Source of the DNA: Thermoanaerobaculia bacterium
Lineage (GTDB): Bacteria > Acidobacteriota > Thermoanaerobaculia > Multivoradales > JAHEKO01
Direction of reading: 5' to 3'
DNA: 64,000 nucleotides
NCBI GenBank assembly: GCA_041574955.1
Contig: JBFGNS010000004.1
Coordinates: 6,707-70,706 of the forward strand
Made by a program: the position numbers and the translations under genes
Shown here: piece after piece, positions 6,041 through 50,244 of the stretch
How the letters are laid out: every line of letters starts with the position of its first letter
Numbering within the stretch: the first letter of the stretch is position 1
Notes under the pieces: generated by a model
What the model was told of the DNA's origin: nothing
The model's input: only the letters and a program-made list of their open reading frames with translations
Databases searched by the model: none

Positions 6041-6044
6041 GCCC

Positions 6045-6341: not shown

Positions 6342-6361
6342 CCGCCATCGCCGCCTCCGGC

Positions 6362-6946: not shown

Positions 6947-6992
6947 TCGGAAGCAGCCGCCGCCGCCGCGTCGTGCGACAATCGCCCCGGGC

Positions 6993-7562: not shown

Positions 7563-7566
7563 GCCG

Positions 7567-12542: not shown

Positions 12543-12607
12543 GCGCTCAGCATGGGCACGCCCGGGGCCGCCGCGCGGGCCGCCCGCGCCGCCGGGTGGG
12601 ACCCCGG

Positions 12608-12635
12608 TTGCGCCGCCGAAGCCGTGTGCTATCAT
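12608..12635 (+). promoter_or_regulatory. Candidate dnaA promoter (extended -10)
   Basis: TTGCGC (12608-12613), a 16-nt spacer, then TGcTATCAT (-10 hexamer 12630-12635), about 100 nt upstream of the dnaA start. Confidence 0.45.
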
Positions 12636-12688
12636 CCCGCCGCTCCGCCGAAATCTGACCCTTTCAGGAGCAGCAAAGCTTCAACATT

Positions 12689-12709
12689 TTTTCCACAGCC
12701 TGTGGAAAA
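12689..12709. promoter_or_regulatory. Inverted pair of DnaA boxes between the dnaA promoter and the dnaA start
   Basis: TTTTCCACA (12689-12697) and TGTGGAAAA (12701-12709), each 8/9 to the TTATCCACA consensus, form the palindrome TTTTCCACAgccTGTGGAAAA in a locally AT-richer stretch. Confidence 0.6.
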
Positions 12710-12733
12710 CCGGCCGGGATTCTTGTTGCTCGA

Positions 12734-14011
<1,278 letters not shown>

Positions 14012-14273
14012 CGCCGGCGCGCAGCTCACGGGCTGTGGATGCCGGCTGCGGTCCGCCGGTGGAGAAGCTGTGGAAAGCGGCGCGGACGGCGCCCGGCTTC
14101 CGCAGCCGTCCACCGCTCGTCCACAACGCGGCCACAACTTTTTCCACTCGCCCGGCAGCCTCGCTCGCTCCCTCGGCGCCAACTCGCGAGCGTCGCTTTC
14201 CGCAGTTCCACAGCCGCCTACGGCTACTACTGCTGTGCTATATTGACTATTCTTCCAGACGGAGTCGCCTCCC
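14012..14273. other. Candidate replication origin (oriC) in the dnaA-dnaN spacer
   Basis: 262-bp non-coding spacer with five DnaA-box-like 9-mers sharing the (T)CCACA core. Four are 7/9: 14033-14041 (rev, GCATCCACA), 14068-14076 (rev, CTTTCCACA), 14117-14125 (TCGTCCACA) and 14140-14148 (TTTTCCACT). One is 6/9: 14204-14212 (AGTTCCACA). An AT-rich segment tgctatattgactattcttcc (14235-14256) sits next to dnaN. Confidence 0.6.
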
Positions 14274-15374: not shown

Positions 15375-15402
15375 CCGGCCGCCCGGCGCGCCGGCGACGG
15401 CG

Positions 15403-19124
<3,722 letters not shown>

Positions 19125-19128
19125 TCCC

Positions 19129-21648
<2,520 letters not shown>

Positions 21649-26719: not shown

Positions 26720-27154
26720 GTGCCCGCCGCCGAGCACTTCCGCCGGCTCGAGCGGATGTACCGCTCGGCGCCGGTCAACGCCTACTACCGGCCGCGGCTG
26801 ACCGTCGGCGAGGCCGAGGCCGAGCTGCGCATAGCGGTCCGCCCGGAGTTCTTCCACGCCGCCGGCGCGGTGCACGGCGCGGTTTGCTTCAAGGCGCTCG
26901 ACGACGCCGCCTACTTCGCGGTCAGCTCGCTGGTCGAGGACGTCTTCATCCTCACCGTCGGCTTCCAGCTCCACTTCGTGCGTGCGGTGTCGGCCGGCGA
27001 GCTGGTGGCGCGCGGCCGCGTGGTCCACCGCTCCCGCCGGCTGTACCTGGCCGAGGCGGTGCTGACCGACGGCGACGGCCGTCAGCTGGCGCGCGGCGGC
27101 GGCAGCTTCATGCCCGGCACCACCCCGCTGGGGCCGGAGCTGGGCTACGCCTGA
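26720..27154 (+). CDS. PaaI/hotdog-fold thioesterase
   Basis: 144 aa. The pattern HAAGAVHGAVCFKALDDAAYFA followed by GRVVHRSRRLYLAEAVLTDGDGRQLA is typical of PaaI-type thioesterases. Confidence 0.65.
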   Translation: MPAAEHFRRLERMYRSAPVNAYYRPRLTVGEAEAELRIAVRPEFFHAAGAVHGAVCFKALDDAAYFAVSSLVEDVFILTVGFQLHFVRAVSAGELVARGRVVHRSRRLYLAEAVLTDGDGRQLARGGGSFMPGTTPLGPELGYA

Positions 27155-28290
27155 GGCGCCAGCTCGAAGACCAGCAGCTCGCCGGCGCGGCGCAGGGTCT
27201 CGGCCACCGCGTCGCGCTCGTCGCCGGCCACCACCAGATGGCCGACCTCCTGCCCGGTGCCGAGCCGCGGCTCGAGCCGGTCGCCGGGCCGGCGGGCCAG
27301 CACCAGCTCGACGGCGCCCGGCAGCGCTGCCACCGCCTCGGCTCCAGCGATGCCGGCCAGGGTGCCGGCACCCGGGTGGAACAGCCGCGTGCCGGCCCAG
27401 CGCGCGGCAGCGCCGGGCAGCCGCGGCTGGCGGCCGAGCTCGAGCTCGAGCCACGCGCGCCACGGGTCGAAGCCCCAGGCCAGCTCGATCAGCCGCAGCA
27501 GATGTCCGCCGGGCGGCCGCAGCGCCAGCTCGCCGAACACGGGGCCGGCGGCGGTCAGGAACAGCTCGAGGTGCACCAGGCCGCGGTCGACCGCGAGCGC
27601 CGCCAGCACGCGGTCGAGCAGCGCCGCGACCGCCGCCGCCGTGGCCGGCTGCAGCCGGTAGGGCACCAAGTTGACCCAACCGGGTTCGACGTACTCGGTG
27701 AAGTTGGTGAACAGCCGCCGGCCACCGGCGACCAGCGCCTCGACGCTCATCTCCTCGCCGTCGATGGCGCCCTCGGCGAGCATGCCCGGCGGCACGCCGT
27801 CGGGCACCGCCGCGGCGCGGTCGAGACGGCTGCTGCCGCGGCCGCCCGAGCCGCGGCGCTGCTTGAGGTAGATCGGCAGCCCCAGCCGGGCGACCAGGCC
27901 GGCGCGATCGAGACCGTCTTCGGCAGTGGCGAAGCGGGCGCACGGCAGGCCGGCCGCCGCCACCGCCCGCTTCATCAGCTGCTTGTCGGTGGCCCGCTCC
28001 GCCACCGCGGCCGGCGTGCCGGCCACCCCGAGAGCCTCCCGCAGCTCGGCGGCGGGCACCACCGCCGCCTCGGTCAGCGCCACCACCGCCGCCACCGGCG
28101 GACCGCCGGCGAGGGCGCGGCGGGCGGCCGCGACCCCCTCCCAGGGGAGGTGGCGCTCGGCGGGCACGCCGGCCGGGCGCCGGTCCGACCACACCACGGC
28201 GTCGAGCCCGAGCCGCTCGGCGGCGACCCTCGCCGCCCGCCGCCGGCCGACGAGCACCACCCGAGCGCCCCGTGGCGCGCCGCCCACCAC
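27145..28290 (-). CDS. ATP-grasp domain ligase, last gene of the arsM-arsS operon
   Basis: 381 aa. ATDKQLMKRAVAAAGLP, GLPIYLKQRRGSGGRGS and EEMSVEALV...HLELFL form an ATP-grasp pattern. The start lies 13 nt after the upstream stop. Confidence 0.7.
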   Translation of the reverse strand: MVGGAPRGARVVLVGRRRAARVAAERLGLDAVVWSDRRPAGVPAERHLPWEGVAAARRALAGGPPVAAVVALTEAAVVPAAELREALGVAGTPAAVAERATDKQLMKRAVAAAGLPCARFATAEDGLDRAGLVARLGLPIYLKQRRGSGGRGSSRLDRAAAVPDGVPPGMLAEGAIDGEEMSVEALVAGGRRLFTNFTEYVEPGWVNLVPYRLQPATAAAVAALLDRVLAALAVDRGLVHLELFLTAAGPVFGELALRPPGGHLLRLIELAWGFDPWRAWLELELGRQPRLPGAAARWAGTRLFHPGAGTLAGIAGAEAVAALPGAVELVLARRPGDRLEPRLGTGQEVGHLVVAGDERDAVAETLRRAGELLVFELAPQA

Positions 28291-28302
28291 CGCCCCGCCG
28301 CC

Positions 28303-29511
28303 CTAGCCGCCGGCGCCGCCGAGCAGCCCGAAGACCTCTTCGACCTGCTGCCAGCCGACGCGCATCAGGAAGGTGGTGTTGCGGCCGTACGACTTGGAGC
28401 CGAGCAGGAAGAAGCCGGGCTCGGGGTTGACCAGGGTGTCGGCGCCGTGGCTCTCCTGCTCCAGGCAGTCGGCGCTGTCCGCCCCCAGCAGCGCCGCCGC
28501 CAGCTTCATCGGGCCGGAGGTGGCGTAGCACTCGTGCACCTGGAGCTGCCGGTAGAGGCGGTGGTCGCCGACGTAGCCGGTGAGCGACAGCAGCCAGTCG
28601 ACCGCCAACGTCCGCTGCGAGCCGGCGGAGTGCCGCAGGGTGGCCTCGATCCGCCCGTCGCGGCGGGCGAGCGACTCCACCACCACGCCGGTCACGGTCT
28701 CGACCGTCGGCGAGCCTCCCCGGGCCAGCCGGTTGGCCCGCACCAGCAGCTGGGCGCGCTCGGGCAGCGGATCGTCCGGCTGGGGGTCGAAGGCCGGGGC
28801 GTCACGCCGCAGCGCCCAGTAGACGCGGCCGCCGGGCCGTCGCTCGGCGAGCGCGGCCAGCCCGGTCACCGCGGTCTGGGCCGAGTGCCCGGCGCCGACC
28901 ACCAGCACCGTCTTGCCGGCCCACAGCTCGGCCTCGGCCTCGAAGTCGGGGATGTGGCGCCGGATCGCGTCCTCCAGCTCGCGCTCGCCGGGCGCCGCGA
29001 TGCCGCCGTCGCCGGTGGCGTTGGGGTTGGAGTAGCTGCCGGTGCAGTCGAGCACCACGTCGGCGCTGGCTACACGCTCGCCGGCGGGACCGGCGAGCAG
29101 CAGCCGGAAACGGCGCTCGGCGCGGCGGCCGGTGCCGATCTCGTCGCTCTTGAGAAGCCCCTGGCGCCCCACCTCGAGCACCCGCGTGGCGGTCTCGACG
29201 TGTGGCCGCAGCTCCGGCAGGGCGGCCAACGGCGCCAGCAGCCGGGTCACCAGCTCGTCGCCGGTCGGGCAGTCGTCGCCCTCCGGCACCGCCTGTCCGG
29301 CGGCCTCGAGGTGGCGGCGCATGCGCGGCGAGACGTTGAGCGACCAGGGGGAGAACAGCCGCACGTGGCCCCAGCGGCGGACGTCGCCGGCGATTTGCTC
29401 GCCGGCCTCGTAGAGGGTGAACGGGTAGCCGTGGTCGACGGCCGCCAGGGCGGCCTCGAGGCCGGTCGGGCCGGCGCCGAGAATGGCGATGTGGGGGCGG
29501 GCTGCGGGCAT
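28303..29511 (-). CDS. FAD/NAD(P)-binding oxidoreductase (pyridine nucleotide-disulfide oxidoreductase-like); start re-set to ATG 29511
   Basis: MPAARPHIAILGAGPTGLEAALAA (first dinucleotide fold) and KTVLVVGAGHSAQTAV (second). 402 aa. The 1037-aa track ORF is an upstream read-through. Confidence 0.7.
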   Translation of the reverse strand: MPAARPHIAILGAGPTGLEAALAAVDHGYPFTLYEAGEQIAGDVRRWGHVRLFSPWSLNVSPRMRRHLEAAGQAVPEGDDCPTGDELVTRLLAPLAALPELRPHVETATRVLEVGRQGLLKSDEIGTGRRAERRFRLLLAGPAGERVASADVVLDCTGSYSNPNATGDGGIAAPGERELEDAIRRHIPDFEAEAELWAGKTVLVVGAGHSAQTAVTGLAALAERRPGGRVYWALRRDAPAFDPQPDDPLPERAQLLVRANRLARGGSPTVETVTGVVVESLARRDGRIEATLRHSAGSQRTLAVDWLLSLTGYVGDHRLYRQLQVHECYATSGPMKLAAALLGADSADCLEQESHGADTLVNPEPGFFLLGSKSYGRNTTFLMRVGWQQVEEVFGLLGGAGG

Positions 29512-29567
29512 TGTGGGATCTCTCCTGGAGCGGGCGCGGTGGGAGGGTGGCCGTGCGGGGTGGGGTG

Positions 29568-30575
29568 TCAGAAACGCGACGCGGCGCGCTCCTTGGCGGG
29601 CAGGATCTCGAGGCAGGTCGTCCACCAGCCGGTCTCCACCGTCTCGACGAACTCCTCGGGCAGCCGCTCGAGCCGCATCTCCGCGGCCAGCGAGCGGTGG
29701 TCGTAGGCCAGCCGGCGCAGCTCGACGCGCAGCTCGCCGTCGCGCTCCTCGACCAGCGCGTAGCGCACCCGCGGGTCGCCGTCGTTCGCCGGCCGGCCGA
29801 TCACCCCGACGTTCACCGCGTCGCGTCCCGAGGGCAGCCGGCGGTGCCAGGGCAGCCCGGTGTGGGTGCACAGCAGGCCATCGCACCGCTCCTGGCGGCA
29901 CAGCACCTCGAGAAACGGCGCCGGCGAGGTGGAGGCGAAGAGGAACTCGTTGATGCGCCGCGGCGAGCCGTGGACCAGCAGCAGCTCTCGGCCGCCGACC
30001 CGCACGCGCCGGCGGCGCGGCCAGCGGCCCATCCAGCGGCGGAACTCCGGCGAGCAGCGCTCGGTGGTGTAGCGGTAGGAGATCTCGGCGAACCGGTTGT
30101 CGCGCGGGTCGGTGTAGCCGCAGTTGCAGTCCTCGCGGCCGGCGGCGAGCGACTCCTCGTAGTTGCCCATGACGCCGGCCACGCCGCCCTGCTCGAGCAG
30201 CGGCCAGGTCTTCTCGGGCGACGGGCCGAAGCCGCCCAGATCGCCCAGGCAGTAGACCGCGTCGACCCCGAGCGTGGCGGTCTCGTCGAGCAGCGCGGTG
30301 AGCGCGTAGTGGTTGTTGTAGACGCCGCCGAACACCGCGATGCGGGCGAACGGCCCCTCCACCGCGACGCCGTCGTCGACCGGCGCCAGGTAGCCGTCGG
30401 TCGCCGCCTGCCGCCCGGCGGCGTTCAGCCGGCGTCCGGCGTCGCGCGCGGCGCGGCGAAACTCGCCCAGCGGCACCAGGCGCTCGCCCCAGGTGGCCAT
30501 GCCGCGGTGGGCGGTGAGCTTGGCGGCGGCCTGGCGGCGCTGCTCGTCGGTGTCGGTGGGCGGTCGGTGCGACAT
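29568..30575 (-). CDS. Metallophosphoesterase-family protein
   Basis: 335 aa. IAVFGGVYNNHYAL, YCLGDLGGFG, MGNYE and LLLVHGSP are calcineurin-like phosphoesterase motifs. From memory, an uncharacterised metallophosphoesterase family is a recurrent neighbour of arsS/arsM. Confidence 0.75.
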   Translation of the reverse strand: MSHRPPTDTDEQRRQAAAKLTAHRGMATWGERLVPLGEFRRAARDAGRRLNAAGRQAATDGYLAPVDDGVAVEGPFARIAVFGGVYNNHYALTALLDETATLGVDAVYCLGDLGGFGPSPEKTWPLLEQGGVAGVMGNYEESLAAGREDCNCGYTDPRDNRFAEISYRYTTERCSPEFRRWMGRWPRRRRVRVGGRELLLVHGSPRRINEFLFASTSPAPFLEVLCRQERCDGLLCTHTGLPWHRRLPSGRDAVNVGVIGRPANDGDPRVRYALVEERDGELRVELRRLAYDHRSLAAEMRLERLPEEFVETVETGWWTTCLEILPAKERAASRF

Positions 30576-30596
30576 GGCGCTTACGGGTGGCGGGCG

Positions 30597-31484
30597 TCAG
30601 GTCCGGCAGCTCACGCCGTAGGCGTGGCAGGTCCAGCACGCCGGGTGATCGAGCGCGAACGGCTCCAGGGTGTCGGCCAGCGCGCTGCCCATCTTGGCGC
30701 TCGGCTCGTTGACCAGGATCGGGCAGACCCAGACCCCCTGGTCGGTGACCATGCGGCAGGAGGAGCACTGCAGGTGGTTCCAGCCGTCCTCGGGCGCGTC
30801 GCCGTCGCGCAGCCGCTGCCAGCTCTCGTAGGCGCCGCCGCGCTCGGCCTCGGCGCCGATGCGGAACACCGGCAGGATCTTGAGCCGCGGCTTGGCGATG
30901 CCGAGCCGGGTGAGCAGCGCGAAGAACCGCCGCTTGCCGTCGGCGCTGGCGTTGTCGTCGTGCACCTCGGTGACGGTGATCACCGGGTTGAGCCCCGCCG
31001 CCACCAGGTTGCGGATGCCGCCCAGGATGCGCTCGAAGGTCCCTTCGCCGCGGATCGGGTCGTTCGAGGCGGCGTCGTAGCCATCGAGCGACACGCGGAG
31101 GTCGAGCGAGTAGTCGCCGGCCGCGTCGAGCGCCGCCAGCCGCCGGCAGCGCGCCGGGTCGAGCAGCAGCCCGTTGGTCAGCACGCTGGCCGGCCCGTAG
31201 GCCAGCGTGGCCTCGAGGATCGCCTCCATCTCGGGGTTCAGGAACGGCTCGCCGCCGGTGAAGTAGTACTCCTTGACGCCCAGCCCGGCGGCCTCCTCGA
31301 GGTGGCGCGCGACGCTCTCGAGGTCCATGAACTCGTGGGTGTGGTTGGTCGGCGAGCAGGAGACGAAGCAGTGGGTGCAGGCCAGGTTGCACACCGTGCC
31401 GCCGACCTGGAACCACAGCGTGTCGAGCGAGCGCAGCTCGACCCGCGGCACGCGGTCCACAGAGCGCTCGTGGAGCCGGCTCAC
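30597..31484 (-). CDS. arsS: Radical SAM protein with Cys-rich C-terminal domain, ArsS-like (arsenosugar-type organoarsenical biosynthesis); start placed at GTG 31484
   Basis: LWFQVGGTVCNLACTHCF (CxxxCxxC cluster), GGEPFLNPE and a C-terminal Cys-rich tail (LQCSSCRMVTDQGVWVCP...HPACWTCHAYGVSC). It starts 10 nt after the arsM stop. Confidence 0.8.
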   Translation of the reverse strand: MSRLHERSVDRVPRVELRSLDTLWFQVGGTVCNLACTHCFVSCSPTNHTHEFMDLESVARHLEEAAGLGVKEYYFTGGEPFLNPEMEAILEATLAYGPASVLTNGLLLDPARCRRLAALDAAGDYSLDLRVSLDGYDAASNDPIRGEGTFERILGGIRNLVAAGLNPVITVTEVHDDNASADGKRRFFALLTRLGIAKPRLKILPVFRIGAEAERGGAYESWQRLRDGDAPEDGWNHLQCSSCRMVTDQGVWVCPILVNEPSAKMGSALADTLEPFALDHPACWTCHAYGVSCRT

Positions 31485-31494
31485 GGCACCGCTC

Positions 31495-32649
31495 TCAGCA
31501 GCAGGCGTCTGGGCCGCAACACGGAACCTCTTCGGTGGTGACGTCGTACTCCTCGCCCTTGGTCTCGCGCGGGTGGCGCAGCGGCGTGCGCGAGCAGTCG
31601 AACGGCGGTGCCTCGTCGAGCGGTACCTCGACCAGCGGGTCGACGAAGTCGAACTGGCCGGCGTACGGCTCCTGGCGGTAGAGCTGGTAGGTCTTGTCGC
31701 ATACCGCGTAGCGGCGGCCACGCTCCATGCGGTGGCCGTCGTCGTCCAGCACCTCCTTGAACGGCCCGCGGTAGACGACGGCCTGCTTGCGCTCGAGGCA
31801 CGGCCCCTCCTTGCCGGTGAACGCCTCGACGGTGAGCGAGCGGAACTCGATGCCCTCCACCGTGCGCCACGGCCCGACCTGGCGCTCGAGCACCCGGATG
31901 CCGTGGAAGCCGGCCCGCTCGAAAGCCTCCAGAAAGCCGTGCTCGGTGAACGCGCCCGAGATGCAGCCGCTCCACAGCTCGCGGTCCCGCTGCATGGCGA
32001 GCGGCACCGGCTCGTCGCTGACGATGTCGGAGATCACCGCCCGCCCGCCGCGTCGCAGCACGCGGTGGATCTCGTCGAACAGCTGCCGCTTCTGGCTGTT
32101 GTCGACCAGGTTGAGAACGCAGTTGGAGACCACCACGTCGACCGCCCCGTCGGCCACCAGCGGCCGGTCGCGGCGCAGCTCGTCGCTCAGCTCGTGCACC
32201 GCCATCAGCTCCTCGACGTTGCGCACCGGGCGCTCGGCCAGGCGCTGCTCGAGCAGGTCGAGGTCGAGCGTCAGGTCCTGGATGCGGCCGCGACGGAACT
32301 CGACGTTGGCGTAGCCCAGCCGCCCGGCCACCCGCGGCGCGTTGCGGCGCGCCACCTCCAGCATCTCGGGCGTCATGTCGACGCCGATCACCCGCCCCGT
32401 CTCGCCGACCACCTGGGCGGCGATGAAGCAGATCTTGCCGGTGCCGCTGCCCAGGTCGAGAACCGTCTCGCCGGGCCGCAGGTGGCGGCTGGGATCGCCG
32501 CAGCCGTAGTCGCGCTCCAGCACCTCATCGGGGATCACCGCCAGGTAGCGCGGATCGTAGTCGGTCGGGCAACACAGGTCGGCGGCGCGCGCCTGCGCGC
32601 CTTCGGTGTAGCGGCTCTTGACGGCTTTCTCGACATCGGCAACGGACAT
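31495..32649 (-). CDS. arsM: Arsenite S-adenosylmethionine methyltransferase ArsM
   Basis: 384 aa. SAM motif VLDLGSGTG plus the ArsM cysteines in the expected contexts ([37 protein letters not shown]). Cys-rich C-terminus [14 protein letters not shown] lies 7 nt upstream of the ATG. Confidence 0.85.
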
Positions 32650-32746
32650 GGGGAGGCTCCTCGTCGTCTCTGCTGGGTGCCCGGACGCGGGTGACGGCTG
32701 GCGTCACCCGGGCCCGGCGGCGGCGCGGTGGTGGCGGCGGCGAGGC

Positions 32747-33496
32747 TCAGCCGGGCGGCGAGCGGCCGCGGGCGGCTCGCGCCGCGGCCGGCCGCAGGCG
32801 GCCGACGACCGGCGGCAGGGGCGGCCGGCACAGCCGCCGCAGCAGCCGGCGCAGGGCGTCCAGCCACGACAGCGGCAGCCGCCGCAGGCCGGCCAGCCAG
32901 CGGCCGAGGTCGGCCGCCCGGTCGAGATCGGCCAGCGGCTCGAGCAGCGTCACTTCGACGCCACCGGAGTGCGCCGCCGCCAGCAGGCTGGCGAGGGTGT
33001 CGGAGCGCCGCCAGGCCACCGCGGCCAGCAGATCGTCTACCGGCCGGTCGGCGGCCAGCAGGTAGAAGCCGCCGTCGGGCGAAGGGCCGACCACCAGCCG
33101 CCCCGGCGTGCGCGACAGCTCGGCCAGCGCGGCGGCCACCTGCCGGCGGCCCAGGCCCGGCGCGTCGGAGCCGACCACCACCAGCGGGCTCGTCGCCGAG
33201 GGTCGCTCGCCGGCCATCGCCCGTCGCAGCCGCTCGCCGAAGCCGCCGCCGGCCTGCGGCCGGTGCTCGACGTCCCCGGCCGGCGCCAGCCGGCGCGGCG
33301 AGCAGACCCGCAGCCGGCAGCCGTTGGCCCGGCCGGCGGCGAGCGCGGCCGCCAGGCAGTCGCGGTGGAGCGCCAGCTCCCACGCGGCCAGCCGGCTGGG
33401 CAGCAGGCGGCGCCGCGCGCGCTCGCGCCGCGGGCCGAGCGTGAACACGAGGAGTGTCGGGCGGCTGGCGGACGCCGAGCTGGTGGGGTCGGGCAT
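32747..33496 (-). CDS. DUF2064-family protein (glycosyltransferase-like fold, TIGR04282 type); start re-set to ATG 33496
   Basis: 249 aa. TLLVFTLGP..., VVVGSDAPGLGRRQVAAALAEL and LVVGPSPDGGFYLLAA match the DUF2064 pattern as I remember it. Confidence 0.7.
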   Translation of the reverse strand: MPDPTSSASASRPTLLVFTLGPRRERARRRLLPSRLAAWELALHRDCLAAALAAGRANGCRLRVCSPRRLAPAGDVEHRPQAGGGFGERLRRAMAGERPSATSPLVVVGSDAPGLGRRQVAAALAELSRTPGRLVVGPSPDGGFYLLAADRPVDDLLAAVAWRRSDTLASLLAAAHSGGVEVTLLEPLADLDRAADLGRWLAGLRRLPLSWLDALRRLLRRLCRPPLPPVVGRLRPAAARAARGRSPPG

Positions 33497-33631
33497 GCTC
33501 TCGTTGGCGGTATACGCCGCCCGGTGCAGAATCGGTTTCCCGAGCCGGGAGGCGGCCAGTCTACATGCCGGGCCGACGTATACTCGCGGGACCTTGCATC
33601 TCGCGCCACAGCCAGCGTCGGCGGGGCGCCG

Positions 33632-34681
33632 GTGAGGATCGCCTCCGTCGGCAAGGCGTTTCCTCGCCACTACTACGAGCAGGAGACGCTGCTGGCCGCC
33701 TTTCGCCGCCTGTGGGCGGATCGGTTCTTCAACCCCGAGAGGCTGGAGAGCCTCCACCGCAACGTACTGGTGGGTGGCCGCCACCTGGCCCTGCCGCTCG
33801 AGCGCTACGAGCAGCTGGCCGGCTGGGGCGAGGCCAACGACGCCTGGATCGAAGTGGCGCAGGAGGTCGGCGCGGCGGCGGTGAGCGATGCCCTGGAGCG
33901 CGCCGGGCTGGCGGTGGACCAGGTCGACGCCCTGCTGGCGGTGACCGTGACCGGCGTCGCCACGCCGTCGCTCGACGCGCTGCTGATCAACCGCCTCGGC
34001 CTGCCGTCGCGCACCCGACGCTACCCGATCTTCGGTCTCGGCTGTGTCGCCGGCGCCGCCGGCGTGGCGCGCGCCGCGGACTACGTCAAGGCGTACCCCG
34101 GACAGGTGGCGGTGCTGGTGTCGGTCGAGCTGTGCTCGCTGACCTTGCAGCGCGAGGACCTGTCGATCCCCAATCTGATCTCCTCGGGGCTGTTCGGCGA
34201 CGGCGCGGCCGCGGTCGTGGTGGTGGGTGACGAGCGCCGCGCCGCCGGGCCGCGGGTCGTAGCCAGCCGCTCGGTCTTCTACCCCGGAACCGAGGAGGTG
34301 ATGGGATGGCGCATCACCGAGCGCGGCTTCCAGGTGGTGCTGTCGGCCGAGGTGCCGGAGATGGTGCGGCGGCACCTGCGCGCCGATGTCGACCGCTTCC
34401 TGGCCGACCACGGCCTCGACCGGCGGCAGATCGCGAGCTGGGTCGCCCACCCCGGTGGGCCGCGGGTGCTGGAGGCGATGGCCGAGAGCCTGGAGCTGCC
34501 CGAAGAGGCGCTGGCGGTCACCTGGCGCAGCCTGCAGGAGGTGGGCAACCTGTCGTCCACCTCGGTGCTGCTGGTGCTCGACGAGACGCTGCGCGAGCAC
34601 CGGCCGCCGCCCGGCAGCCCGGGGATGATGCTGGCGATGGGGCCGGGCTTCTGCTCGGAGCTGGTGCTGCTCGAGTGGTAG
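33632..34681 (+). CDS. Type III polyketide synthase (chalcone/stilbene synthase family); start placed at GTG 33632
   Basis: 349 aa. Catalytic Cys (PIFGLGCVAGAAG), His (VAHPGGPRVL) and Asn (VGNLSSTSVL), with a GPGF C-terminal motif. Confidence 0.9.
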   Translation: MRIASVGKAFPRHYYEQETLLAAFRRLWADRFFNPERLESLHRNVLVGGRHLALPLERYEQLAGWGEANDAWIEVAQEVGAAAVSDALERAGLAVDQVDALLAVTVTGVATPSLDALLINRLGLPSRTRRYPIFGLGCVAGAAGVARAADYVKAYPGQVAVLVSVELCSLTLQREDLSIPNLISSGLFGDGAAAVVVVGDERRAAGPRVVASRSVFYPGTEEVMGWRITERGFQVVLSAEVPEMVRRHLRADVDRFLADHGLDRRQIASWVAHPGGPRVLEAMAESLELPEEALAVTWRSLQEVGNLSSTSVLLVLDETLREHRPPPGSPGMMLAMGPGFCSELVLLEW

Positions 34682-34715
34682 CGCCGCCGCCCCGCCCCGC
34701 CGCCCGGGAAGCGCC

Positions 34716-35237
34716 GTGGTGAGCCGCGTTCTCTACCTGGGGCTCGTCGGGCTGGTGGCGGTCCAGCGGCTGGCCGAGCTGCGGCTGGCCGGCCACAACA
34801 CCCGACGCCTGCTGGCAGCCGGTGCGGTAGAGCACGGTCGCGGCCACTACCCGGTGATGGTGGCGCTCCACACGCTCTTCCTCGTTGCCTGCCCGGCGGA
34901 GGTCTGGTTGCTCGAGCGACCGCTGGTGCCGCCCCTCGCCGGCGCCATGCTGCTCGCCCTGGCGGGCTCGACGGCGCTGCGCTACTGGGCGATCGCCAGC
35001 CTCGGCGAGCGCTGGACGACGCGAGTGCTGGTGCCGCCGGCGGCGCCGCGGTTGCGTCGCGGACCGTACCGCTACCTGCGTCACCCCAACTACCTGGCGG
35101 TGGTGGTCGAGATGGCCGCCCTGCCGCTGGTGCACACCGCCTGGCTCACCGCGCTCGTCTTCAGCCTCGCCAACGCGGCTCTGCTCGTGGTGCGCATCGG
35201 CTGCGAGGAGACCGCGCTGTCGCGGCCGGCCGGGTAG
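34716..35237 (+). CDS. Isoprenylcysteine carboxyl methyltransferase (ICMT)-family membrane methyltransferase
   Basis: 173 aa, multi-TM, with RGPYRYLRHPNYLAVVVEMAALPL. This is the same family as the methyltransferase partner of bacterial type III PKSs (B. subtilis BpsB/YpbQ type). Confidence 0.75.
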   Translation: MVSRVLYLGLVGLVAVQRLAELRLAGHNTRRLLAAGAVEHGRGHYPVMVALHTLFLVACPAEVWLLERPLVPPLAGAMLLALAGSTALRYWAIASLGERWTTRVLVPPAAPRLRRGPYRYLRHPNYLAVVVEMAALPLVHTAWLTALVFSLANAALLVVRIGCEETALSRPAG

Positions 35238-35250
35238 ACTGCGCCGGGGC

Positions 35251-35490
35251 ATGACCAGAGAGGAGATTCTCGCCGGCGTCGCTGAGCTCGCCCGCCGGGA
35301 GCTGGGCTGGAGCGGTCCGCTCGAGCCCGAGATGCGGCTGCTCGAGGAGCTGTCGCTCGACTCGCTGCGCCGGCTGACCCTGGCGGTGGCGGTGGAGAAC
35401 CGGTTCCGCATCCGGCTGTCGCCTGAAGACGAGGCCGCGCTCGAGACGGTGGCGGATCTGGTGGCGGTGATCGACCGGCGACGGCGGTGA
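35251..35490 (+). CDS. Acyl carrier protein
   Basis: 79 aa. MTREEILAGVAELARRELG...LEELSLDSLRRLTLAVAVE with the phosphopantetheine Ser in the LDSL motif. Found inside a longer spurious track ORF. Confidence 0.8.
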   Translation: MTREEILAGVAELARRELGWSGPLEPEMRLLEELSLDSLRRLTLAVAVENRFRIRLSPEDEAALETVADLVAVIDRRRR

Positions 35491-36866
35491 GCGGGGCGGC
35501 GTCAGGTCGGGGCTGGACGGTGCGGCTCGGGTCGCTGGTGGAGCCCGCCCCGCGGTCGCTCGACGAGCCCTCCTTCGTCCGCACGGTGGTGTGGGTGAGC
35601 CTGTGGACGGCGCTGGTGGGAGGGGCCCTGCTGGCCGGCAACGGCCTGGCGGAGGGCCGGCGGAACATCGCCGTCACCGCCGGCGCGTTCACCGCGATCG
35701 CGGCCGGCCTGCTGTGGCTCGGCCGCATCGGCCGGCTGCGGCTGGCCGGCGGCCTGCTCCCGTTGGTCTCGCTCGTCCTGCTGACGCTGGCGCTCGACCG
35801 CAACCTGGGCATTCACGACAGCGGCGTCCTGTGCTTGCCGGTGATCGTCATCTTCGCCGGCCTGACGCTCGGACGCCTCGGCGCGGTGGCGTTCGCGGCG
35901 CTGGCCAGCGGCGCCGCCTTCTGGCTGGTGCGGCCGGAGGGCCGGCGGCCGACGCCGGCGATGCTGGCGGCCGAGACCGGCGTCGGCGATGCGGTGGCGG
36001 TGACGATCCTGCTGGCCGTGACCACCGCCCTGCTGTGGGTGATCATCGCCGGCCTGCGCGGCAGCCTGCGACGGGCGCAGGCGAGCGCCCGAGCGCTAGC
36101 CGCGGACATCGAGGAGCGCCGCCGCGTCGAGGGTCAGCGCGAGGCGCTGATTGCCGAGCTCGAGTCCAAGAACGCCGAGCTCGAGCGGTTCAACTACACC
36201 GTGTCGCACGACCTGCGCAGCCCGCTGGTAACCATCTCGGCGTTCATCGACCTGGCGGAGCAGGACGCCCGACAGGGCAGCGAGGAGCGGCTGCACTCCG
36301 ACCTGTCGGTGGTGCGGCGCGCCGCGGCCACGATGCGGTTGCTGCTCGAGGACCTGCTCGAGCTGTCGCGCCTCGGCCGAACCCAGCTCAGGCTGCGCGA
36401 GGTGGAGGTGCGCCAGGTGGTCGAGGAGGCGTTGTCGGTGCTGGCCGGCCCGATCGCCGAGGGCCGGGTGGAGGTGACGATCCAGCAGGGGCTGCCCACC
36501 GTGCTGGCCGACCGGGCACGGCTGCTGCTGCTGCTGCAGAACCTGCTCGAGAACGCGATCAAGTTCCGTGACGCGCGGCAGCCGGAGGTCGAGGTCGGCT
36601 GCCAGCGGCGCTCCGGGCGGGAGGTACTGTACGTGCAGGACAACGGAGTCGGCATCGCGCCCGCCCTGCACGAGAAGGTGTTCGAGGTGTTCTCGCGGCT
36701 GGACTCCAGGATCGAGGGCACCGGGCTCGGGCTGGCGCTGGCGCGGCGGGTGGTGGAGCTTCACGGCGGCGAGATCTGGGTCGAGTCGGAGGGCGCCGGG
36801 CGCGGCGCCAGGTTCTGCTTCACGCTGGCGGCGGCCGCCCCGGAGCCGGTGGGGGCAGGGCGGTGA
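35487..36866 (+). CDS. Membrane sensor histidine kinase (no adjacent response regulator)
   Basis: 459 aa. About six N-terminal TM helices, a coiled coil, the HisKA H-box FNYTVSHDLRSPL, and HATPase N/G boxes (LLENAIKF, DNGVGI, GTGLGLA). Its GTG overlaps the ACP stop (GTGA). Confidence 0.85.
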   Translation: MSGAASGRGWTVRLGSLVEPAPRSLDEPSFVRTVVWVSLWTALVGGALLAGNGLAEGRRNIAVTAGAFTAIAAGLLWLGRIGRLRLAGGLLPLVSLVLLTLALDRNLGIHDSGVLCLPVIVIFAGLTLGRLGAVAFAALASGAAFWLVRPEGRRPTPAMLAAETGVGDAVAVTILLAVTTALLWVIIAGLRGSLRRAQASARALAADIEERRRVEGQREALIAELESKNAELERFNYTVSHDLRSPLVTISAFIDLAEQDARQGSEERLHSDLSVVRRAAATMRLLLEDLLELSRLGRTQLRLREVEVRQVVEEALSVLAGPIAEGRVEVTIQQGLPTVLADRARLLLLLQNLLENAIKFRDARQPEVEVGCQRRSGREVLYVQDNGVGIAPALHEKVFEVFSRLDSRIEGTGLGLALARRVVELHGGEIWVESEGAGRGARFCFTLAAAAPEPVGAGR

Positions 36867-38605
36867 CCGCCCGCACCCTCGGCGAGCTGCTTCTCGCCGC
36901 GGACGGCGTCACCGACAGCGGCTTGCGGCTGCTCGACGGCCGCGGACGGGCGACCCGGGTGAGCTGGGCGGAGCTCGTCCGGAGCGCGGGCCGGACGGCC
37001 GGGCGGCTGGCAGCGGCAGGGGTGGAGCCGGGCGACCGGGTGGCGCTGGTCTACCCCACCGGGCGCGGCTTCTTCGACGCCTTCTTCGGCTGCGTGATGG
37101 CCGGTGCCGTGCCGGTCCCGCTGTACCCGCCGGTGCGTCTCGGCAGGCTCGACGAGTACCACCGCCGTACCGCCGGCATGCTCGACGCGGTGGCCGTCCG
37201 GATGGTGCTGGCCGACCGGCGGATCCGCCGGCTGCTGGGCGAGACCGTTGCCCCGGCCGCTCCGCCGCTCGGCTGCCGGCAGCTGGCGGAGCTGCCCCGC
37301 GCCGAGCCGCTGGCGGTGGCGAGCGAGCCCGAGGCGCTGGCGCTGGTGCAGTTCTCCTCCGGCACCACTCTAGCGCCCAAGCCGGTGATGCTCAGCCATC
37401 GGGCGCTGCTCGCCCAGACCCGCCTGCTGAACGGCTTCTGGCCCGACCAGGGCGAGCTGCGCCACAGCGGAGTGTCGTGGCTGCCGCTCTACCACGACAT
37501 GGGGCTGATCGGCTGTGTGCTGCCGGCGCTCGAGCGCCGCACAGACCTGACGCTGATCGGCCCCGAGCGGTTTGTCGCCGAGCCGGCGGTGTGGCTGCGG
37601 GCCATCTCCCGCTACCGGGCGACGGTGTCGCCGGCGCCCAACTTCGCCTACGGGCTGTGCGTCGAGAAGATCCGCGACGAGCAGCTCGCAGGCGTCGACC
37701 TGAGCAGCTGGCGGGTCGCGCTCAACGGCGCCGAGGCGGTGTCGCCCGAGGTGCTGCGCCAGTTCGCCGAGCGGTTCGCGCCATGGGGTTTCCGGCGCCA
37801 GGCGTTGACTCCCGTCTACGGGCTGTCCGAAGCCGCCCTGGCGGTGACCTTCTCGGCGCTCGACGGGCCGTTCGTCGGCCGCCGGTTCGACCGCCAGGCG
37901 CTGTACGGCCGCGGCGAGGCGGTGGCCCGCGACGACGGCGTCGAGCTGGTCTCGGTCGGCCGGCCGCTGCCGGGCTTCGAGCTCTCGCTGCGAGCGCCTG
38001 ACGGCCAGCCGGTTGCCGACGGCCGCACCGGCCGGCTCTGGGTGCGCGGTCCGTCGCTGATGGCGGGCTACTTCGGCCGGCCCGACGACACCGCCGAGGT
38101 GCTCGTCGACGGCTGGCTGGACACCGGTGACCAGGGCTTTGTCGACGGCGGCGAGCTGTTTCTCACCGGCCGCGTCAAAGACCTGATCATCGTACGTGGG
38201 CGAAACCACGCGCCGGAGGAGATCGAGTACGCGGTCTACGGCCTGCCGGGGGTGCGCACCGGCTGCACGGCGGCGGTGGCCTACCTGCCAGAGGGCGGCG
38301 AGCGCGAGGAGCTGCTGCTGCTGGTCGAGCTGCGGCCGGCGGCAGACGGTGACCTGCGGCGCGAGCTGCCCGAGCTGTGCCGCCAGCGGGTGCTGGCCGC
38401 CGCCGGACTGGCGCTCGACCGCGTGGTGCTGCTCGAGCCCGGCACCCTGCCGCGCACCTCGTCGGGCAAGATCCGCCGCCAGGACGCGCTGCGCCGCTAC
38501 CGCGACGGCCGGCTGGCGCCGCCCGCGGCGGTCAACGTGGTGACCCTGGCGCGCGCCATGGTGCGTTCGCGGCGCGCCTTCGGCCGCACGAGGAGCAACG
38601 ACTGA
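36863..38605 (+). CDS. Fatty acyl-AMP ligase / AMP-dependent synthetase
   Basis: 580 aa. Adenylation motifs LVQFSSGTTLAPKPVMLSH, YGLSEA, DTGDQG and a late GKIRR-type motif (SSGKIRR). The start overlaps the kinase stop (GTGA). Confidence 0.8.
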   Translation: MTARTLGELLLAADGVTDSGLRLLDGRGRATRVSWAELVRSAGRTAGRLAAAGVEPGDRVALVYPTGRGFFDAFFGCVMAGAVPVPLYPPVRLGRLDEYHRRTAGMLDAVAVRMVLADRRIRRLLGETVAPAAPPLGCRQLAELPRAEPLAVASEPEALALVQFSSGTTLAPKPVMLSHRALLAQTRLLNGFWPDQGELRHSGVSWLPLYHDMGLIGCVLPALERRTDLTLIGPERFVAEPAVWLRAISRYRATVSPAPNFAYGLCVEKIRDEQLAGVDLSSWRVALNGAEAVSPEVLRQFAERFAPWGFRRQALTPVYGLSEAALAVTFSALDGPFVGRRFDRQALYGRGEAVARDDGVELVSVGRPLPGFELSLRAPDGQPVADGRTGRLWVRGPSLMAGYFGRPDDTAEVLVDGWLDTGDQGFVDGGELFLTGRVKDLIIVRGRNHAPEEIEYAVYGLPGVRTGCTAAVAYLPEGGEREELLLLVELRPAADGDLRRELPELCRQRVLAAAGLALDRVVLLEPGTLPRTSSGKIRRQDALRRYRDGRLAPPAAVNVVTLARAMVRSRRAFGRTRSND

Positions 38606-38606
38606 G

Positions 38607-39713
38607 ATGGCCCGGCCGGACCTGCTGGTGGTCGGTGGCGGCCCGGCCGGGCTGGCGACGGCGATCGCGGCCCGCTGCGCCGGGCTGAGCGCGACCGTGG
38701 TCGACCGCTCGCGGCCGCCGATCGACAAGGCGTGCGGCGAGGGAATCATGCCGGCCGGCGTCGGGCGGCTGGCCGAGCTCGGCGTGGAGCTCGACCCCGT
38801 CGCATGCCGGCCGTTCCGCGGCATCCGCTACCGCGATGGAGAGCTGTCGGCCGCCGCCGACTTTCCGGGCCGGCCGGGGCTGGGAGTCCGCCGCACCACC
38901 CTCCACCAGGCGCTGGCCAAGCGGGCGGCGGCGGCGGGTGTCGAGCTGGTGTGGGGGCGGGTTGTGCGGGCGCTCGAGGGCGGCACGGCCGTCACCGACG
39001 ACGGGCCGCTCGGGGGCCGCTGGATCGTCGGCGCCGACGGGCTGACCTCGCGAGTGCGGCGGTGGGCGGGGCTCGAGCGGCCGCTGCCGCGGCGGTTCCG
39101 CTTCGGCGTCAGGCGGCACTACCAGGTCGCGCCGTGGAGCCACCGGGTGGAGGTCTGGTGGGCGGACGGCTGCGAGGCGTACGTCACGCCGGTGTCGGCC
39201 GGTGAGGTCGGCGTGGCCCTGCTGTGGAGCGGCGGCAAGGCCGACTTCGACCGCCTGCTGGGCCGTTTCCCGGGCCTCGCCGAGCGGCTGGCGGGGGCGG
39301 CCAGCAGCTCGCGCGACCAGGGCGCCGGCCCGCTCCACCGCGAGCCGCGGGCGGTGTGGCGCGGCCGGGTGCTGCTGGCCGGCGACGCCGCCGGCTACTA
39401 CGACGCCATCACCGGCGAGGGGCTGGACCTCGCCTTCCACCAGGCGTTCGCCCTGGTCGACGCCGTGCGCCATGACGACCCGCGCCGCTACGCGCTCTTC
39501 TGCCGGCGAATGTACCGGCTGCCGTTCGCGCTCATCCGGCTGCTGCTCGTCGCCGAGCACCGGCCGTGGCTGCGCCGCCGGCTGATCCGCACGCTGGCCG
39601 AGGACCCGCGCCTGTTCGCCCGGCTGCTGGCCATCCACGCCCGTGAGCGGCCGCCGCGCAGCCTCGGACTGGCCGGCGTCTGGCGGCTGGCGCGCGGCCT
39701 GGCGCGGGCCTAG
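38607..39713 (+). CDS. FAD-dependent monooxygenase/oxidoreductase (geranylgeranyl reductase/aromatic hydroxylase family)
   Basis: 368 aa. DLLVVGGGPAGLATAIAAR (FAD fold), DKACGEG and LLAGDAAGYYDAITGEG. Starts 1 nt after the ligase stop. Confidence 0.8.
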   Translation: MARPDLLVVGGGPAGLATAIAARCAGLSATVVDRSRPPIDKACGEGIMPAGVGRLAELGVELDPVACRPFRGIRYRDGELSAAADFPGRPGLGVRRTTLHQALAKRAAAAGVELVWGRVVRALEGGTAVTDDGPLGGRWIVGADGLTSRVRRWAGLERPLPRRFRFGVRRHYQVAPWSHRVEVWWADGCEAYVTPVSAGEVGVALLWSGGKADFDRLLGRFPGLAERLAGAASSSRDQGAGPLHREPRAVWRGRVLLAGDAAGYYDAITGEGLDLAFHQAFALVDAVRHDDPRRYALFCRRMYRLPFALIRLLLVAEHRPWLRRRLIRTLAEDPRLFARLLAIHARERPPRSLGLAGVWRLARGLARA

Positions 39714-41367: not shown

Positions 41368-41422
41368 TCGCGGTGACGGACTCACCGGATAGACCCGCCA
41401 CCGGCGGGGCCGGAGACCCCAG

Positions 41423-42019
41423 GTGCGTCCAGAAGCCAGCGCCCGCGCCGCAGACGACGCGGCCGACCGCCACCTGCTCGAGCGGGTGGCGCGCCGCGAC
41501 CGTGCCGCCTTCGAGCGGCTGTACGAGCGCTATGCCGACCGCGTGGCGCGCTACCTGTTGCGCCTGGTGGGCCGCCGGGAGGTGGTGGAGGAGGCGCTCA
41601 ACGACGTGATGCTGGCGGTCTGGCGTGGCGCCGGGAGCTTCGCCGGGCACTCCCGGGTCTCCACCTGGATCCTGGGGATCGCCTACCGCAAGGGGGTCGA
41701 CGCGCTGCGCCGGCTGGTTAGGCAGCCGATCGCGGTGCCGGCGGAGAGCGCCGAGAACGGCGAGCCGCCGGGCGACGAGCTGACCGCGGAGCAGCTCCGG
41801 ATGTCGCTCGAGCGGGCGCTCGAGACGCTCTCGGCCGAGCAGCGGGCGGTGGTCGAGCTGACCTACTACTTCGGCTACTCGTACCGCGAGATCGCCGCCA
41901 TCACCGGCTGCCCGGTCAACACGGTCAAGACCCGCATGTTCTACGCCCGCAAGCGGCTGCAGGCGGCGTGGTCCGGCCGCGACAGCGCTGGGAGCGCCGC
42001 CGGGGAGGAACGCAGCTAG
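41423..42019 (+). CDS. ECF-type RNA polymerase sigma-70 family factor
   Basis: 198 aa. Region 2 (FERLYERYADRVARYLLRLVGRREVVEEALNDVMLAVW) and region 4 (LSAEQRAVVELTYYFGYSYREIAAITGCPVNTVKTRMFYARKRL). Confidence 0.85.
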   Translation: MRPEASARAADDAADRHLLERVARRDRAAFERLYERYADRVARYLLRLVGRREVVEEALNDVMLAVWRGAGSFAGHSRVSTWILGIAYRKGVDALRRLVRQPIAVPAESAENGEPPGDELTAEQLRMSLERALETLSAEQRAVVELTYYFGYSYREIAAITGCPVNTVKTRMFYARKRLQAAWSGRDSAGSAAGEERS

Positions 42020-42682
42020 ATGCACGACCCGACTCGCGACCAGGCCCTGAGTCATGCCGAGACCGCCGAGCTGCTGCCGTGGCTGGTCAACGGTAGCCTG
42101 GCGGACGACGATCTGCACCGCGTCGAGGCGCATCTCGAGCGGTGCGCCGACTGCCGGCGGGAGGCCGCGCGGCTCGAGCGGATGGCGCGCGCGCTCGCCG
42201 GGCGGGCGGAGCCGGTCGCCCCGCCCCGTCCCGACTTTGCCGCCGTGATGGCGCATATCGAGGCGGCGGAGTCGCCGGGCGACGGGGCCTCCGGGCGGCG
42301 CGCACGGCCGGCCTCCGGGCGCAGCTTCGCCTGGCTGCTGGCTGCCCAGGCGGCAGCCGTGGCGTTGCTGTCGGTGGTGCTGCTGTGGGCGTCGGCGCCC
42401 GGCGACGTCGGCGCCGGGTTCCGCACCCTGGCGCGACCGGCGGCGGCGCCGGCGCTCGCCTCGGCGCCGCGACTGCGCGTCGTCTTCGAGGAGCAGCTGA
42501 CCGAGGTCGAGCTGCGCGACCTCCTGCTGTCGGTGCGCGGCCGGGTGGTGGCCGGACCGACGCCGTTCGGCGTCTACACCGTGGAGCTGGCGTCGATCGA
42601 CAGCGGTGAGCTGGCCGGCGTGGTCGACAGGCTGCGGCGCAGCGGCAAGGTCCGGTTCGTCGAAACGGTGGTGGGCCAGTAG
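42020..42682 (+). CDS. Anti-sigma factor (zf-HC2 type) with one TM segment
   Basis: 220 aa. HLERCADCRREAARL matches the H-x3-C-x2-C motif. TM segment FAWLLAAQAAAVALLSVVLLW. Starts at the base after the sigma stop. Confidence 0.7.
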   Translation: MHDPTRDQALSHAETAELLPWLVNGSLADDDLHRVEAHLERCADCRREAARLERMARALAGRAEPVAPPRPDFAAVMAHIEAAESPGDGASGRRARPASGRSFAWLLAAQAAAVALLSVVLLWASAPGDVGAGFRTLARPAAAPALASAPRLRVVFEEQLTEVELRDLLLSVRGRVVAGPTPFGVYTVELASIDSGELAGVVDRLRRSGKVRFVETVVGQ

Positions 42683-43911: not shown

Positions 43912-43966
43912 CCGGGCAGCTGTCGCGCCGACTCCCGCCGCGCTGCGGCTAGAATGGTCGGCTGCG

Positions 43967-50152: not shown

Positions 50153-50244
50153 CGGGAGCTGGGCGCGTCGCGGCCGCGGGCTGTCTGACGATCGGGCCGG
50201 GCCGGAGGGGTGGCGGCGTGGCCGGGCTGCCAGAGTCTACACGC

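Follow-up and report, generated by a model that had tools for sequence, protein, structure and literature searches.

The 64,000-nucleotide (nt) stretch of Thermoanaerobaculia DNA analyzed here (contig JBFGNS010000004.1; the whole stretch is hereafter called the window) carries on its minus strand a compact operon in which the gene for an ArsM-type arsenite methyltransferase is followed by one for a radical S-adenosylmethionine (SAM) enzyme. We lean, by a small degree, towards the interpretation that five of the operon's genes form a conserved module for making an organoarsenical, encoding a DUF2064 protein, ArsM, the radical SAM enzyme, a metallophosphoesterase-fold protein (MPE) and a flavoprotein, with the radical SAM enzyme (hereafter the window type) taking the place of ArsS. 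This interpretation is supported by the adjacency of the radical SAM gene to those for the MPE and the flavoprotein, by gene fusions, by the varied gene orders in which the linkage is found, by the mutual exclusivity of ArsS and the window type, and by conserved cysteines. To our knowledge, only 2 radical SAM enzymes, ArsS and ArsL, are known to make arsenic-carbon bonds. ArsS transfers a 5'-deoxyadenosyl group and ArsL a 3-amino-3-carboxypropyl group, and both act together with ArsM.

Organization of the operon

A codon-position plot of guanine plus cytosine (GC) content, which is 72-77% in the window, reveals 6 successive coding stretches on the minus strand between positions 27145 and 33496. 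They encode the DUF2064 protein (32747..33496, 249 amino acids (aa), assigned with the Pfam model DUF2064), the ArsM-type As(III) SAM methyltransferase (31495..32649, 384 aa, assigned by alignment to CmArsM and with NCBIfam), the radical SAM enzyme of an unnamed family (30597..31484, 295 aa, PF04055), the degenerate MPE (29568..30575, 335 aa, Metallophos_2), a flavin adenine dinucleotide (FAD)/NAD(P)H flavoprotein (28303..29511, 402 aa, Pyr_redox_2) and an ATP-grasp protein of the L-amino-acid-ligase type (27145..28290, 381 aa, ATP-grasp plus LAL_C2). According to the translations, the gaps between these genes, in the order given, are 97, 10, 21, 56 and 12 nt. A scan for promoters and terminators returned nothing beyond the shuffled background in this 75% GC DNA. 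Since 5 of the 6 genes recur jointly in other genomes, the arrangement is more than chance. A preliminary description of this DNA had already proposed a 6-gene minus-strand operon, and its coordinates, domains and gaps agree with the GC plot, the translations and the Pfam and NCBIfam assignments.

The radical SAM protein and its family

The radical SAM protein shows all the features that define its superfamily. It scores 75.8 bits on PF04055 (cutoff 29.5) and carries a CX3CX2C motif (CNLACTHC, residues 32-39), as well as a cysteine-rich tail; C32, C36 and C39 are invariant in the window-type family, as is the GGE SAM-binding motif (G77-G78-E79). Five further cysteines are invariant (C240, C254, C283, C286 and C293), and together they appear to form a truncated SPASM/twitch-like pattern ending in a tri-Cys tail, the C-terminus of the protein being HPACWTCHAYGVSCRT.

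The preliminary description had labeled this protein ArsS-like, a label that does not survive comparison with the ArsS model TIGR04167, on which the protein scores 55.9 bits (cutoff 300) through profile positions 4-147 only, placing it outside the ArsS clade. Divergent members of the window-type family, down to 30% identity, score 45-64 bits on the same model, whereas genuine ArsS proteins (at loci L113, L116 and L104) score 421-440 bits over the full length. Genuine ArsS is 24.7% identical to the window protein, in the core only, and the genuine ArsS sequences from L101-L116 end in HCFGCTAGAGSGCGG; the ArsS C-terminal cysteine (or selenocysteine) signature of the HCFGCTAG-x-GS-x-CGG type is missing from the window protein. 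We therefore rejected ArsS as its identity, although the gene stands beside arsM in the manner of ArsS, with a gap of 10 nt. ArsS is described as transferring 5'-deoxyadenosyl to dimethylarsenite to give DDMAA (bioRxiv 10.64898/2026.04.29.721666). ArsL was likewise rejected. ArsL has about 430-450 aa and its CX3CX2C motif lies near residues 194-216 (BgArsL, PMC8552651); it ends in an RCCLKC tri-Cys motif that binds As(III) (bioRxiv 10.1101/2024.02.01.577332; 10.64898/2026.04.29.721666). The window protein, in contrast, is 295 aa long with its cluster motif at residues 32-39, and contains no RCCLKC or CCxxC motif anywhere in its sequence; the ArsL model NF040542 is not among its 25 best NCBIfam matches, the weakest of which has E=2.5e-8. 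Among the NCBIfam models it comes closest to that of the Rv1681 family, with 106.8 bits (cutoff 380). Judged by these features of its sequence, the enzyme is neither ArsS nor ArsL, and belongs to a large unnamed family. We found no description of this family in the searchable literature on radical SAM-metallophosphoesterase-arsenic, DUF2064-arsenic or arsM-Thermoanaerobaculia combinations.

The family is widespread. The window protein has more than 7000 homologues, of which the top 120 are 77-88% identical and come mainly from Thermoanaerobaculia metagenome-assembled genomes; clustering at 50% (E<1e-30) left 125 family representatives. A scan of species-representative genomes returned 80 radical SAM loci from at least 10 phyla, with members in Acidobacteriota, Planctomycetota, Gemmatimonadota, Eisenbacteria, KSB1 and Latescibacterota, and further ones in Myxococcota, Elusimicrobiota, Fibrobacterota, Chloroflexota, Gammaproteobacteria and Brocadiaceae.

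Conserved neighbors of the radical SAM gene

To count neighbors we used the 52 species-representative loci with at least 3 kilobases (kb) of sequence on both sides of the radical SAM gene, scoring co-oriented genes up to 3 kb away. The MPE gene is by far the most frequent of the operon's genes, being found in 46/52 loci, and the flavoprotein gene follows with 27/52. ArsM is near the radical SAM gene in 5/52 loci (8/52 when extended to 10 kb) and DUF2064 in 6/52 (11/52 anywhere in the locus); an ATP-grasp gene was found near the radical SAM gene in 0/52. When all neighboring open reading frames (ORFs) were clustered de novo with reciprocal coverage, no further broadly recurrent partner emerged: several of the clusters that recurred turned out to be antisense shadows of the radical SAM and MPE genes, and the others were lineage-specific housekeeping genes (ferrochelatase, Dtd, AccA and a ThiO-like oxidase). 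The preliminary description had placed the phosphoesterase and the flavoprotein outside the ArsS and ArsL pathways as extra partners of an operon combining ArsM with a radical SAM enzyme; the domain assignments and the neighborhood counts bear this out, as do fusions between flavoprotein and radical SAM domains.

Fusions link other members of the module as well. One protein (P0258) is a fusion of the radical SAM enzyme to ArsM that retains all ArsM cysteine motifs, and the 4 long sequences in its cluster come from assemblies of Brocadiales, "Ca. Wunengus" and other Planctomycetota. Fusions in which the flavoprotein forms the N-terminal part, followed by the radical SAM enzyme, are found in Planctomycetaceae (P0269/P0432), in Zixibacteria (P0247) and in P0313. 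In P0372/P0433, a genuine TIGR04282 domain (163.6 bits, cutoff 134) is fused to a radical SAM protein of a related, third type (see below). These fusions recur in independent assemblies. The order of the genes varies too: Acidobacteriota have DUF2064-ArsM-radical SAM-MPE-flavoprotein, KSB1 have flavoprotein-radical SAM-ArsM-MPE, locus L033 has radical SAM-MPE-DUF2064 with ArsM further on, and in Brocadiales the link between ArsM and the radical SAM enzyme is made by fusion. Because this linkage persists across different gene orders, we take it to reflect functional coupling rather than inherited synteny.

In some relatives, a 4-gene importer of the PstSCAB type lies between or next to the ArsM and radical SAM genes (L005, L011, L087, where it spans 9128-12563, L096 and L119); L009 probably has one too. 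PstC of this embedded importer scores above its NCBIfam cutoff and PstS, PstA and PstB score below theirs. Its position suggests dedicated uptake of arsenate or phosphate by a divergent transporter. The window has no such importer.

ArsM and its radical SAM partners

The window ArsM aligns to CmArsM (PDB 4kw7/4fr0) with E=8e-35. Of the 4 catalytic cysteines of CmArsM (C44, C72, C174 and C224), the last 3 align to C50, C177 and C230 of the window protein (contexts YGCG, SNCV and SGC), and a C26/C27 pair, 23-24 residues before C50, stands at the expected place of C44, an assignment made by position and not by alignment. The ArsM cysteine contexts noted in the preliminary description are thus present. 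The protein scores below all curated NCBIfam cutoffs (NF040538, 326.6 bits, cutoff 500; PRK11873, 203.6, cutoff 263; NF038099, 115.7, cutoff 400), and is a clear ArsM homologue, yet one of a distinct clade with an insertion of about 37 residues. Its homologues at 75-84% identity fill hundreds of clusters.

We collected 80 metagenome loci anchored on this ArsM clade, 35 of which have a detectable partner or enough flanking sequence for one to be seen. A radical SAM neighbor is present in 32 of these 35: ArsS in 18, the window type in 12 and a third type in 2, leaving 3 with none. No locus among the 35 has 2 radical SAM types, and the MPE and the flavoprotein occur only with the window type. These counts, together with the lack of double loci, indicate that members of this ArsM clade nearly always have a radical SAM partner and that the window type is an alternative to ArsS. 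We also inspected 3 members of the clade picked for their very long contigs (L085, L086 and L087, one of them read on a 24-kb copy). The block ArsM-radical SAM-MPE-flavoprotein is present in 3/3, with an annotated DUF2064 gene in L085 and L087.

The third ArsM-associated radical SAM type was seen at L094 (4039-4989), at L142 (8128-9096) and in P0372. It is 34% identical to the window type, has the tail HPHCAKFCVLGGASCS and is likewise unnamed in NCBIfam.

Partner proteins of the module

The MPE scores 29.3 bits on Metallophos_2, just over the Pfam cutoff of 27, and does not have all the motifs of a canonical dinuclear site (D-x-H, GD, GNH[DE], H and GHxH). Compared with its canonical relative 3rqz, SDVHAN is changed to GGVYNN and GNHD to GNYE, while the GD motif, the Asn and the His of HGSP are kept. 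The changes are a family trait: the D-x-H site reads GGxYxN and the GNH motif GNY in at least 95% of 71 sequences. About 70 sequences share an invariant D149-C150-x-C152-G-Y-x-D-P-x-D-N160 segment and C321. The protein keeps the family fold but its active site is degenerate; with the replaced residues of motifs I and III and the invariant cysteines, it appears to have given up one metal site and acquired a Cys triad.

The flavoprotein scores 34 bits on Pyr_redox_2, has 2 dinucleotide-binding domains with GxGxxG motifs and no conserved cysteine. A cross-phylum profile searched against the PDB matched YpdA/Bdr, FMO and TrxR through the N-terminal FAD motif only, so that no finer class can be assigned. 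The DUF2064 protein scores 72.5 bits on its Pfam model (cutoff 25.8) and 95.7 bits (cutoff 134) on TIGR04282 ("arsenosugar biosynthesis glycosyltransferase"). Its gene adjoins that of ArsM in L004, L005, L010-L012, L085-L087, L091, L093, L095 and L096.

The ATP-grasp ligase and the variable slot

The sixth gene of the operon behaves differently from the other 5. Its product has the domain composition of an L-amino acid ligase, with an ATP-grasp domain (PF02222, 29.8 bits, cutoff 27) followed by the LAL C-terminal domain (LAL_C2, PF18603, 44.3 bits, cutoff 29.4), and matches the L-amino acid ligase of PDB 4wd3 with E=1.3e-16. The preliminary description had singled out this ligase as the key novelty of the operon. 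It has, however, only 36 homologues (E<1e-10), and no ATP-grasp gene was found in 84 radical SAM-anchored and 80 ArsM-anchored loci (0/164), nor in L085-L087; we therefore consider the conserved unit to be one of 5 genes. Its closest relatives, at L171-L173 (67%, 58% and 58% identity), do lie directly downstream of a window-type flavoprotein gene on the same strand, with gaps of 126, 10 and 10 nt; the flavoproteins there are 75-88% identical to that of the window, and the ATP-grasp gene is followed by a HAD gene, as in the window. Since only these 3 loci and the window have this adjacency, the ligase is best described as a conserved add-on of a narrow sub-lineage, in which it may have a tailoring role.

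ATP-grasp relatives at 48-55% identity stand in unrelated contexts, 2 of them beside a MATCAP peptidase. In L089 (4055-6546) and L090 (3899-6406), a distant ATP-grasp relative is followed by a gene for a MATCAP-family (PF08014) peptidase, a pairing of ligase and carboxypeptidase that resembles, by analogy, a reversible addition of C-terminal amino acids.

What follows the flavoprotein gene varies among relatives: this slot holds ferrochelatase, AAA_15/DUF4276 or Lactamase_B genes. A defense-like pair of an AAA_15/AAA_21 ATPase and a DUF4276 protein directly follows the flavoprotein gene in L002 (13129-14952) and L087 (15701-17158). Ferrochelatase directly follows it in L001, L002, L005, L006, L008, L014, L017, L085 (gap of 7 nt), L095 and L119. 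We considered ferrochelatase as a further module member and provisionally treated it instead as lineage synteny: it recurs in Thermoanaerobaculia-type relatives and is missing from distant phyla and from the window, where no ferrochelatase was found in the 64 kb and the ATP-grasp and 4HBT genes fill the slot.

Proposed function and alternative explanations

In the pathway that we envisage, As(III) would be held by thiolates, for which there are 2 candidate sites: the radical SAM tail (C283/C286/C293), by analogy to the CCxxC tail of ArsL, and the Cys triad that is invariant in the degenerate MPE. The latter protein might then be an arsenic handler, either carrying As(III), or reducing arsenate as an enzyme derived from a phosphatase, or hydrolyzing a nucleoside-type intermediate. 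An As-C bond would be formed by the radical SAM enzyme with a SAM-derived radical, and ArsM would carry out one or more methylations. The NAD(P)H flavoprotein could pass electrons to the [4Fe-4S] cluster of the radical SAM enzyme, as its fusion to that enzyme suggests, or could oxidize a trivalent product. DUF2064 might perform a downstream transfer step common to ArsS-type cassettes, the embedded PstSCAB-like importer would supply arsenate in some relatives, and the ATP-grasp ligase would be a local add-on in one sub-lineage. Should the 5-gene organoarsenical module be real, it would bring a third ArsM-partnered radical SAM family, with a Cys-triad phosphoesterase-like partner and a flavoprotein, and so widen known arsenic biochemistry. 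Thousands of so far unannotated genes would thereby acquire a function, in Acidobacteriota, Planctomycetota (anammox bacteria included), Gemmatimonadota and candidate phyla, groups of importance to the arsenic cycle of soils, sediments and paddy fields. A more far-reaching version strikes us as doubtful: a third, mechanistically distinct family of As-C-forming radical SAM enzymes, with a Cys-based handler derived from a phosphatase, a flavoprotein reductase and arsenate imported by Pst, making a new class of organoarsenicals across uncultured soil and sediment phyla, and with amino-acid ligation by the ATP-grasp enzyme in the window's sub-lineage.

Several observations weigh against an organoarsenical module. 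ArsM is within 10 kb at only about 10-15% of the radical SAM-anchored loci (44 of the 52 are without it), the others standing among housekeeping genes, so that the radical SAM-MPE core may have a broader, non-arsenic function. Under such an explanation this core, with or without the flavoprotein, would serve a general purpose such as the modification of a nucleotide or cofactor, with the MPE trimming a phosphorylated metabolite and ArsM and DUF2064 as secondary neighbors. The lineage-specific housekeeping neighbors (ferrochelatase, Dtd, AccA and the ThiO-like oxidase) fit this explanation. So does the very high sequence conservation, of the order usual for core metabolic genes, with values of about 80% inside the class and about 50% from phylum to phylum; the sequence and fold neighbors of the radical SAM enzyme also include the nucleoside triphosphate-using MoaA and viperin. 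Moreover, as the preliminary description had stated, resistance genes are missing nearby, with none of arsR, acr3/arsB and arsC among the roughly 45 window ORFs scanned. The MPE, for its part, is not strictly required, being absent from 6/52 radical SAM loci, the anammox fusion loci among them. The putative roles given to the MPE, the flavoprotein and DUF2064 are drawn from motifs and fusions. An AlphaFold2 model of the radical SAM enzyme, computed from a shallow alignment, has a mean predicted local distance difference test score of 59, with values below 50 in the Cys-rich regions, and is too poor to judge whether the cysteines cluster; searched against the PDB with Foldseek it gave generic radical SAM matches only, with template modeling scores of at most 0.49. 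The likeness of the window ArsM to the arsinothricin ArsM model is uninformative on the product: we had considered it as a hint of an amino-acid-type product and discarded it, as ArsMs beside ArsS or the third radical SAM type score equally. All the same, we hold a purely non-arsenic core to be unlikely. Fusions of the radical SAM enzyme to ArsM recur across independent assemblies, the ArsM linkage is retained in 4 different gene orders and lineages, and the window family replaces genuine ArsS beside the same ArsM clade without ever occurring together with it. A genuine TIGR04282 domain has been joined to a related radical SAM protein. In the MPE, canonical catalytic residues have disappeared and a Cys triad has been acquired, changes more in keeping with a thiophilic ligand than with the hydrolysis of a phosphoester.

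The replacement of ArsS could also be a plain non-orthologous displacement, in which the new radical SAM enzyme performs the ArsS reaction, transferring 5'-deoxyadenosyl to methylated As(III) and leading to ordinary arsenosugar precursors. The ArsM clade and the kind of DUF2064 partner are indeed shared with ArsS cassettes, the 2 radical SAM types are mutually exclusive, and the N-terminal CX3CX2C of the window enzyme is canonical. However, the MPE and the flavoprotein were never seen with genuine ArsS, the C-terminal cysteine architecture differs from that of ArsS, and most family members have no adjacent ArsM, though ArsS is described in published work as requiring a methylated substrate; we rate displacement as distinctly improbable. 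Least probable of all, and in our estimate highly so, is the model of the preliminary description itself, which takes the radical SAM protein for an orthologue of ArsS and assigns all 6 genes, the ATP-grasp gene included, to one pathway yielding a ligated organoarsenical. The genes are co-directional with gaps of no more than 97 nt, the ligase is of the L-amino-acid-ligase type, and its gene begins 12 nt past that of the flavoprotein, an adjacency repeated in L171-L173. Against this model stand the TIGR04167 score far under both the cutoff and the scores of genuine ArsS, and the absence of the ligase from the radical SAM-anchored and ArsM-anchored loci and from L085-L087. The 36 ligase homologues also diverge much faster (58-67%) than the neighboring genes (75-88%), the more distant ones lie in unrelated contexts, and the slot that the gene occupies is variable.

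Genomic surroundings

Downstream, the operon converges with a 4HBT thioesterase gene (26720-27154, plus strand) that overlaps it by 10 nt, and upstream it is divergent from a type III polyketide synthase (PKS) gene (about 33560-34681, plus strand). The latter opens an srsABC-like phenolic-lipid cluster (33560-39713, plus strand), which comprises the type III PKS, an ICMT-family methyltransferase, an inserted histidine kinase, a FAAL-like AMP-binding enzyme and a FAD_binding_3 hydroxylase. Many Thermoanaerobaculia-type relatives likewise have this cluster divergently beside the radical SAM module, with or without intervening ArsM and DUF2064 genes (for example in L001, L002, L004-L008, L086, L087, L093, L095 and L096). 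A functional tie between the 2, such as the making of arsenolipids, is putative. In L004 and L087 the PKS block ends with a radical SAM gene, the L087 copy being of the Radical_SAM_N2 kind. A protein with this domain is also encoded in the window, at the end of a plus-strand group (41393-45541) of an extracytoplasmic function sigma factor, a zf-HC2 anti-sigma factor and a subtilase.

The module lies about 13-20 kb from dnaA, in the neighborhood of a chromosomal replication-origin region (2530-21648) with rnpA (2530-2922, minus strand), dnaX (4115-6040), dnaA (12659-14011), dnaN (14247-15374), gyrB (16167-19124) and gyrA (19102-21648). An NADPH-dependent FMN reductase of the FMN_red family (49568-50236, minus strand) was considered as a candidate ArsH and ruled out, with 61.8 bits on the ArsH model (cutoff 292). 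The ORF at 62580-63869 (plus strand) is weakly similar to a YHS domain-containing (seleno)protein family (43.4 bits, cutoff 70).

Comparison with known systems

The closest known system is the ArsM-ArsS cassette (TIGR04167; TIGR04282/TIGR04283), which has the same ArsM clade beside a radical SAM enzyme and a gene of the DUF2064/TIGR04282 type. ArsS itself resembles the window enzyme in its N-terminal CX3CX2C, its Cys-rich C-terminus and its place beside ArsM, which is interchangeable between the 2 types. It differs in its tail, which is HCFGCTAGAGSGCGG in ArsS and CxxCx6C in the window type, and the ArsS cassette lacks the degenerate MPE and the flavoprotein of the window module.

The ArsL-ArsM arsinothricin pathway also pairs a radical SAM enzyme with ArsM, and its radical SAM enzyme has 3 C-terminal cysteines, which in ArsL bind As(III). 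The window ArsM scores highest on the arsinothricin ArsM model (NF040538), a resemblance that is not specific to ArsL because it is common to ArsMs partnered with ArsS. Unlike that pathway, the window module has no ArsQ permease and no RCCLKC tail, and its radical SAM enzyme is shorter. The module would work along the lines of the ArsS and ArsL systems, for neither of which an MPE or a flavoprotein partner has been reported.

The SPASM/twitch enzymes (anSME, SkfB, PqqE, MftC and BlsE) are the best sequence and fold matches of the window radical SAM protein, whose pattern C240-x9-G-x3-C254...C283-x2-C286-x6-C293 resembles a truncated SPASM motif. In contrast to SPASM proteins, the window family has 5 of the 7-8 cysteines, no conserved gene for a peptide substrate nearby, and scores far under the cutoffs. 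For the MPE, finally, the nearest known proteins are phosphoesterases of the YfcE/SapH/PF1291 type (PDB 3rqz, 3qfm, 1nnw and 2gju), with which it has in common the fold and 3 motifs (GD, GN and H); it departs from them in that other residues stand in place of Asp and His in motif I and of His in motif III, and in the gain of the invariant DCxCGYxDPxDN insert and C321.

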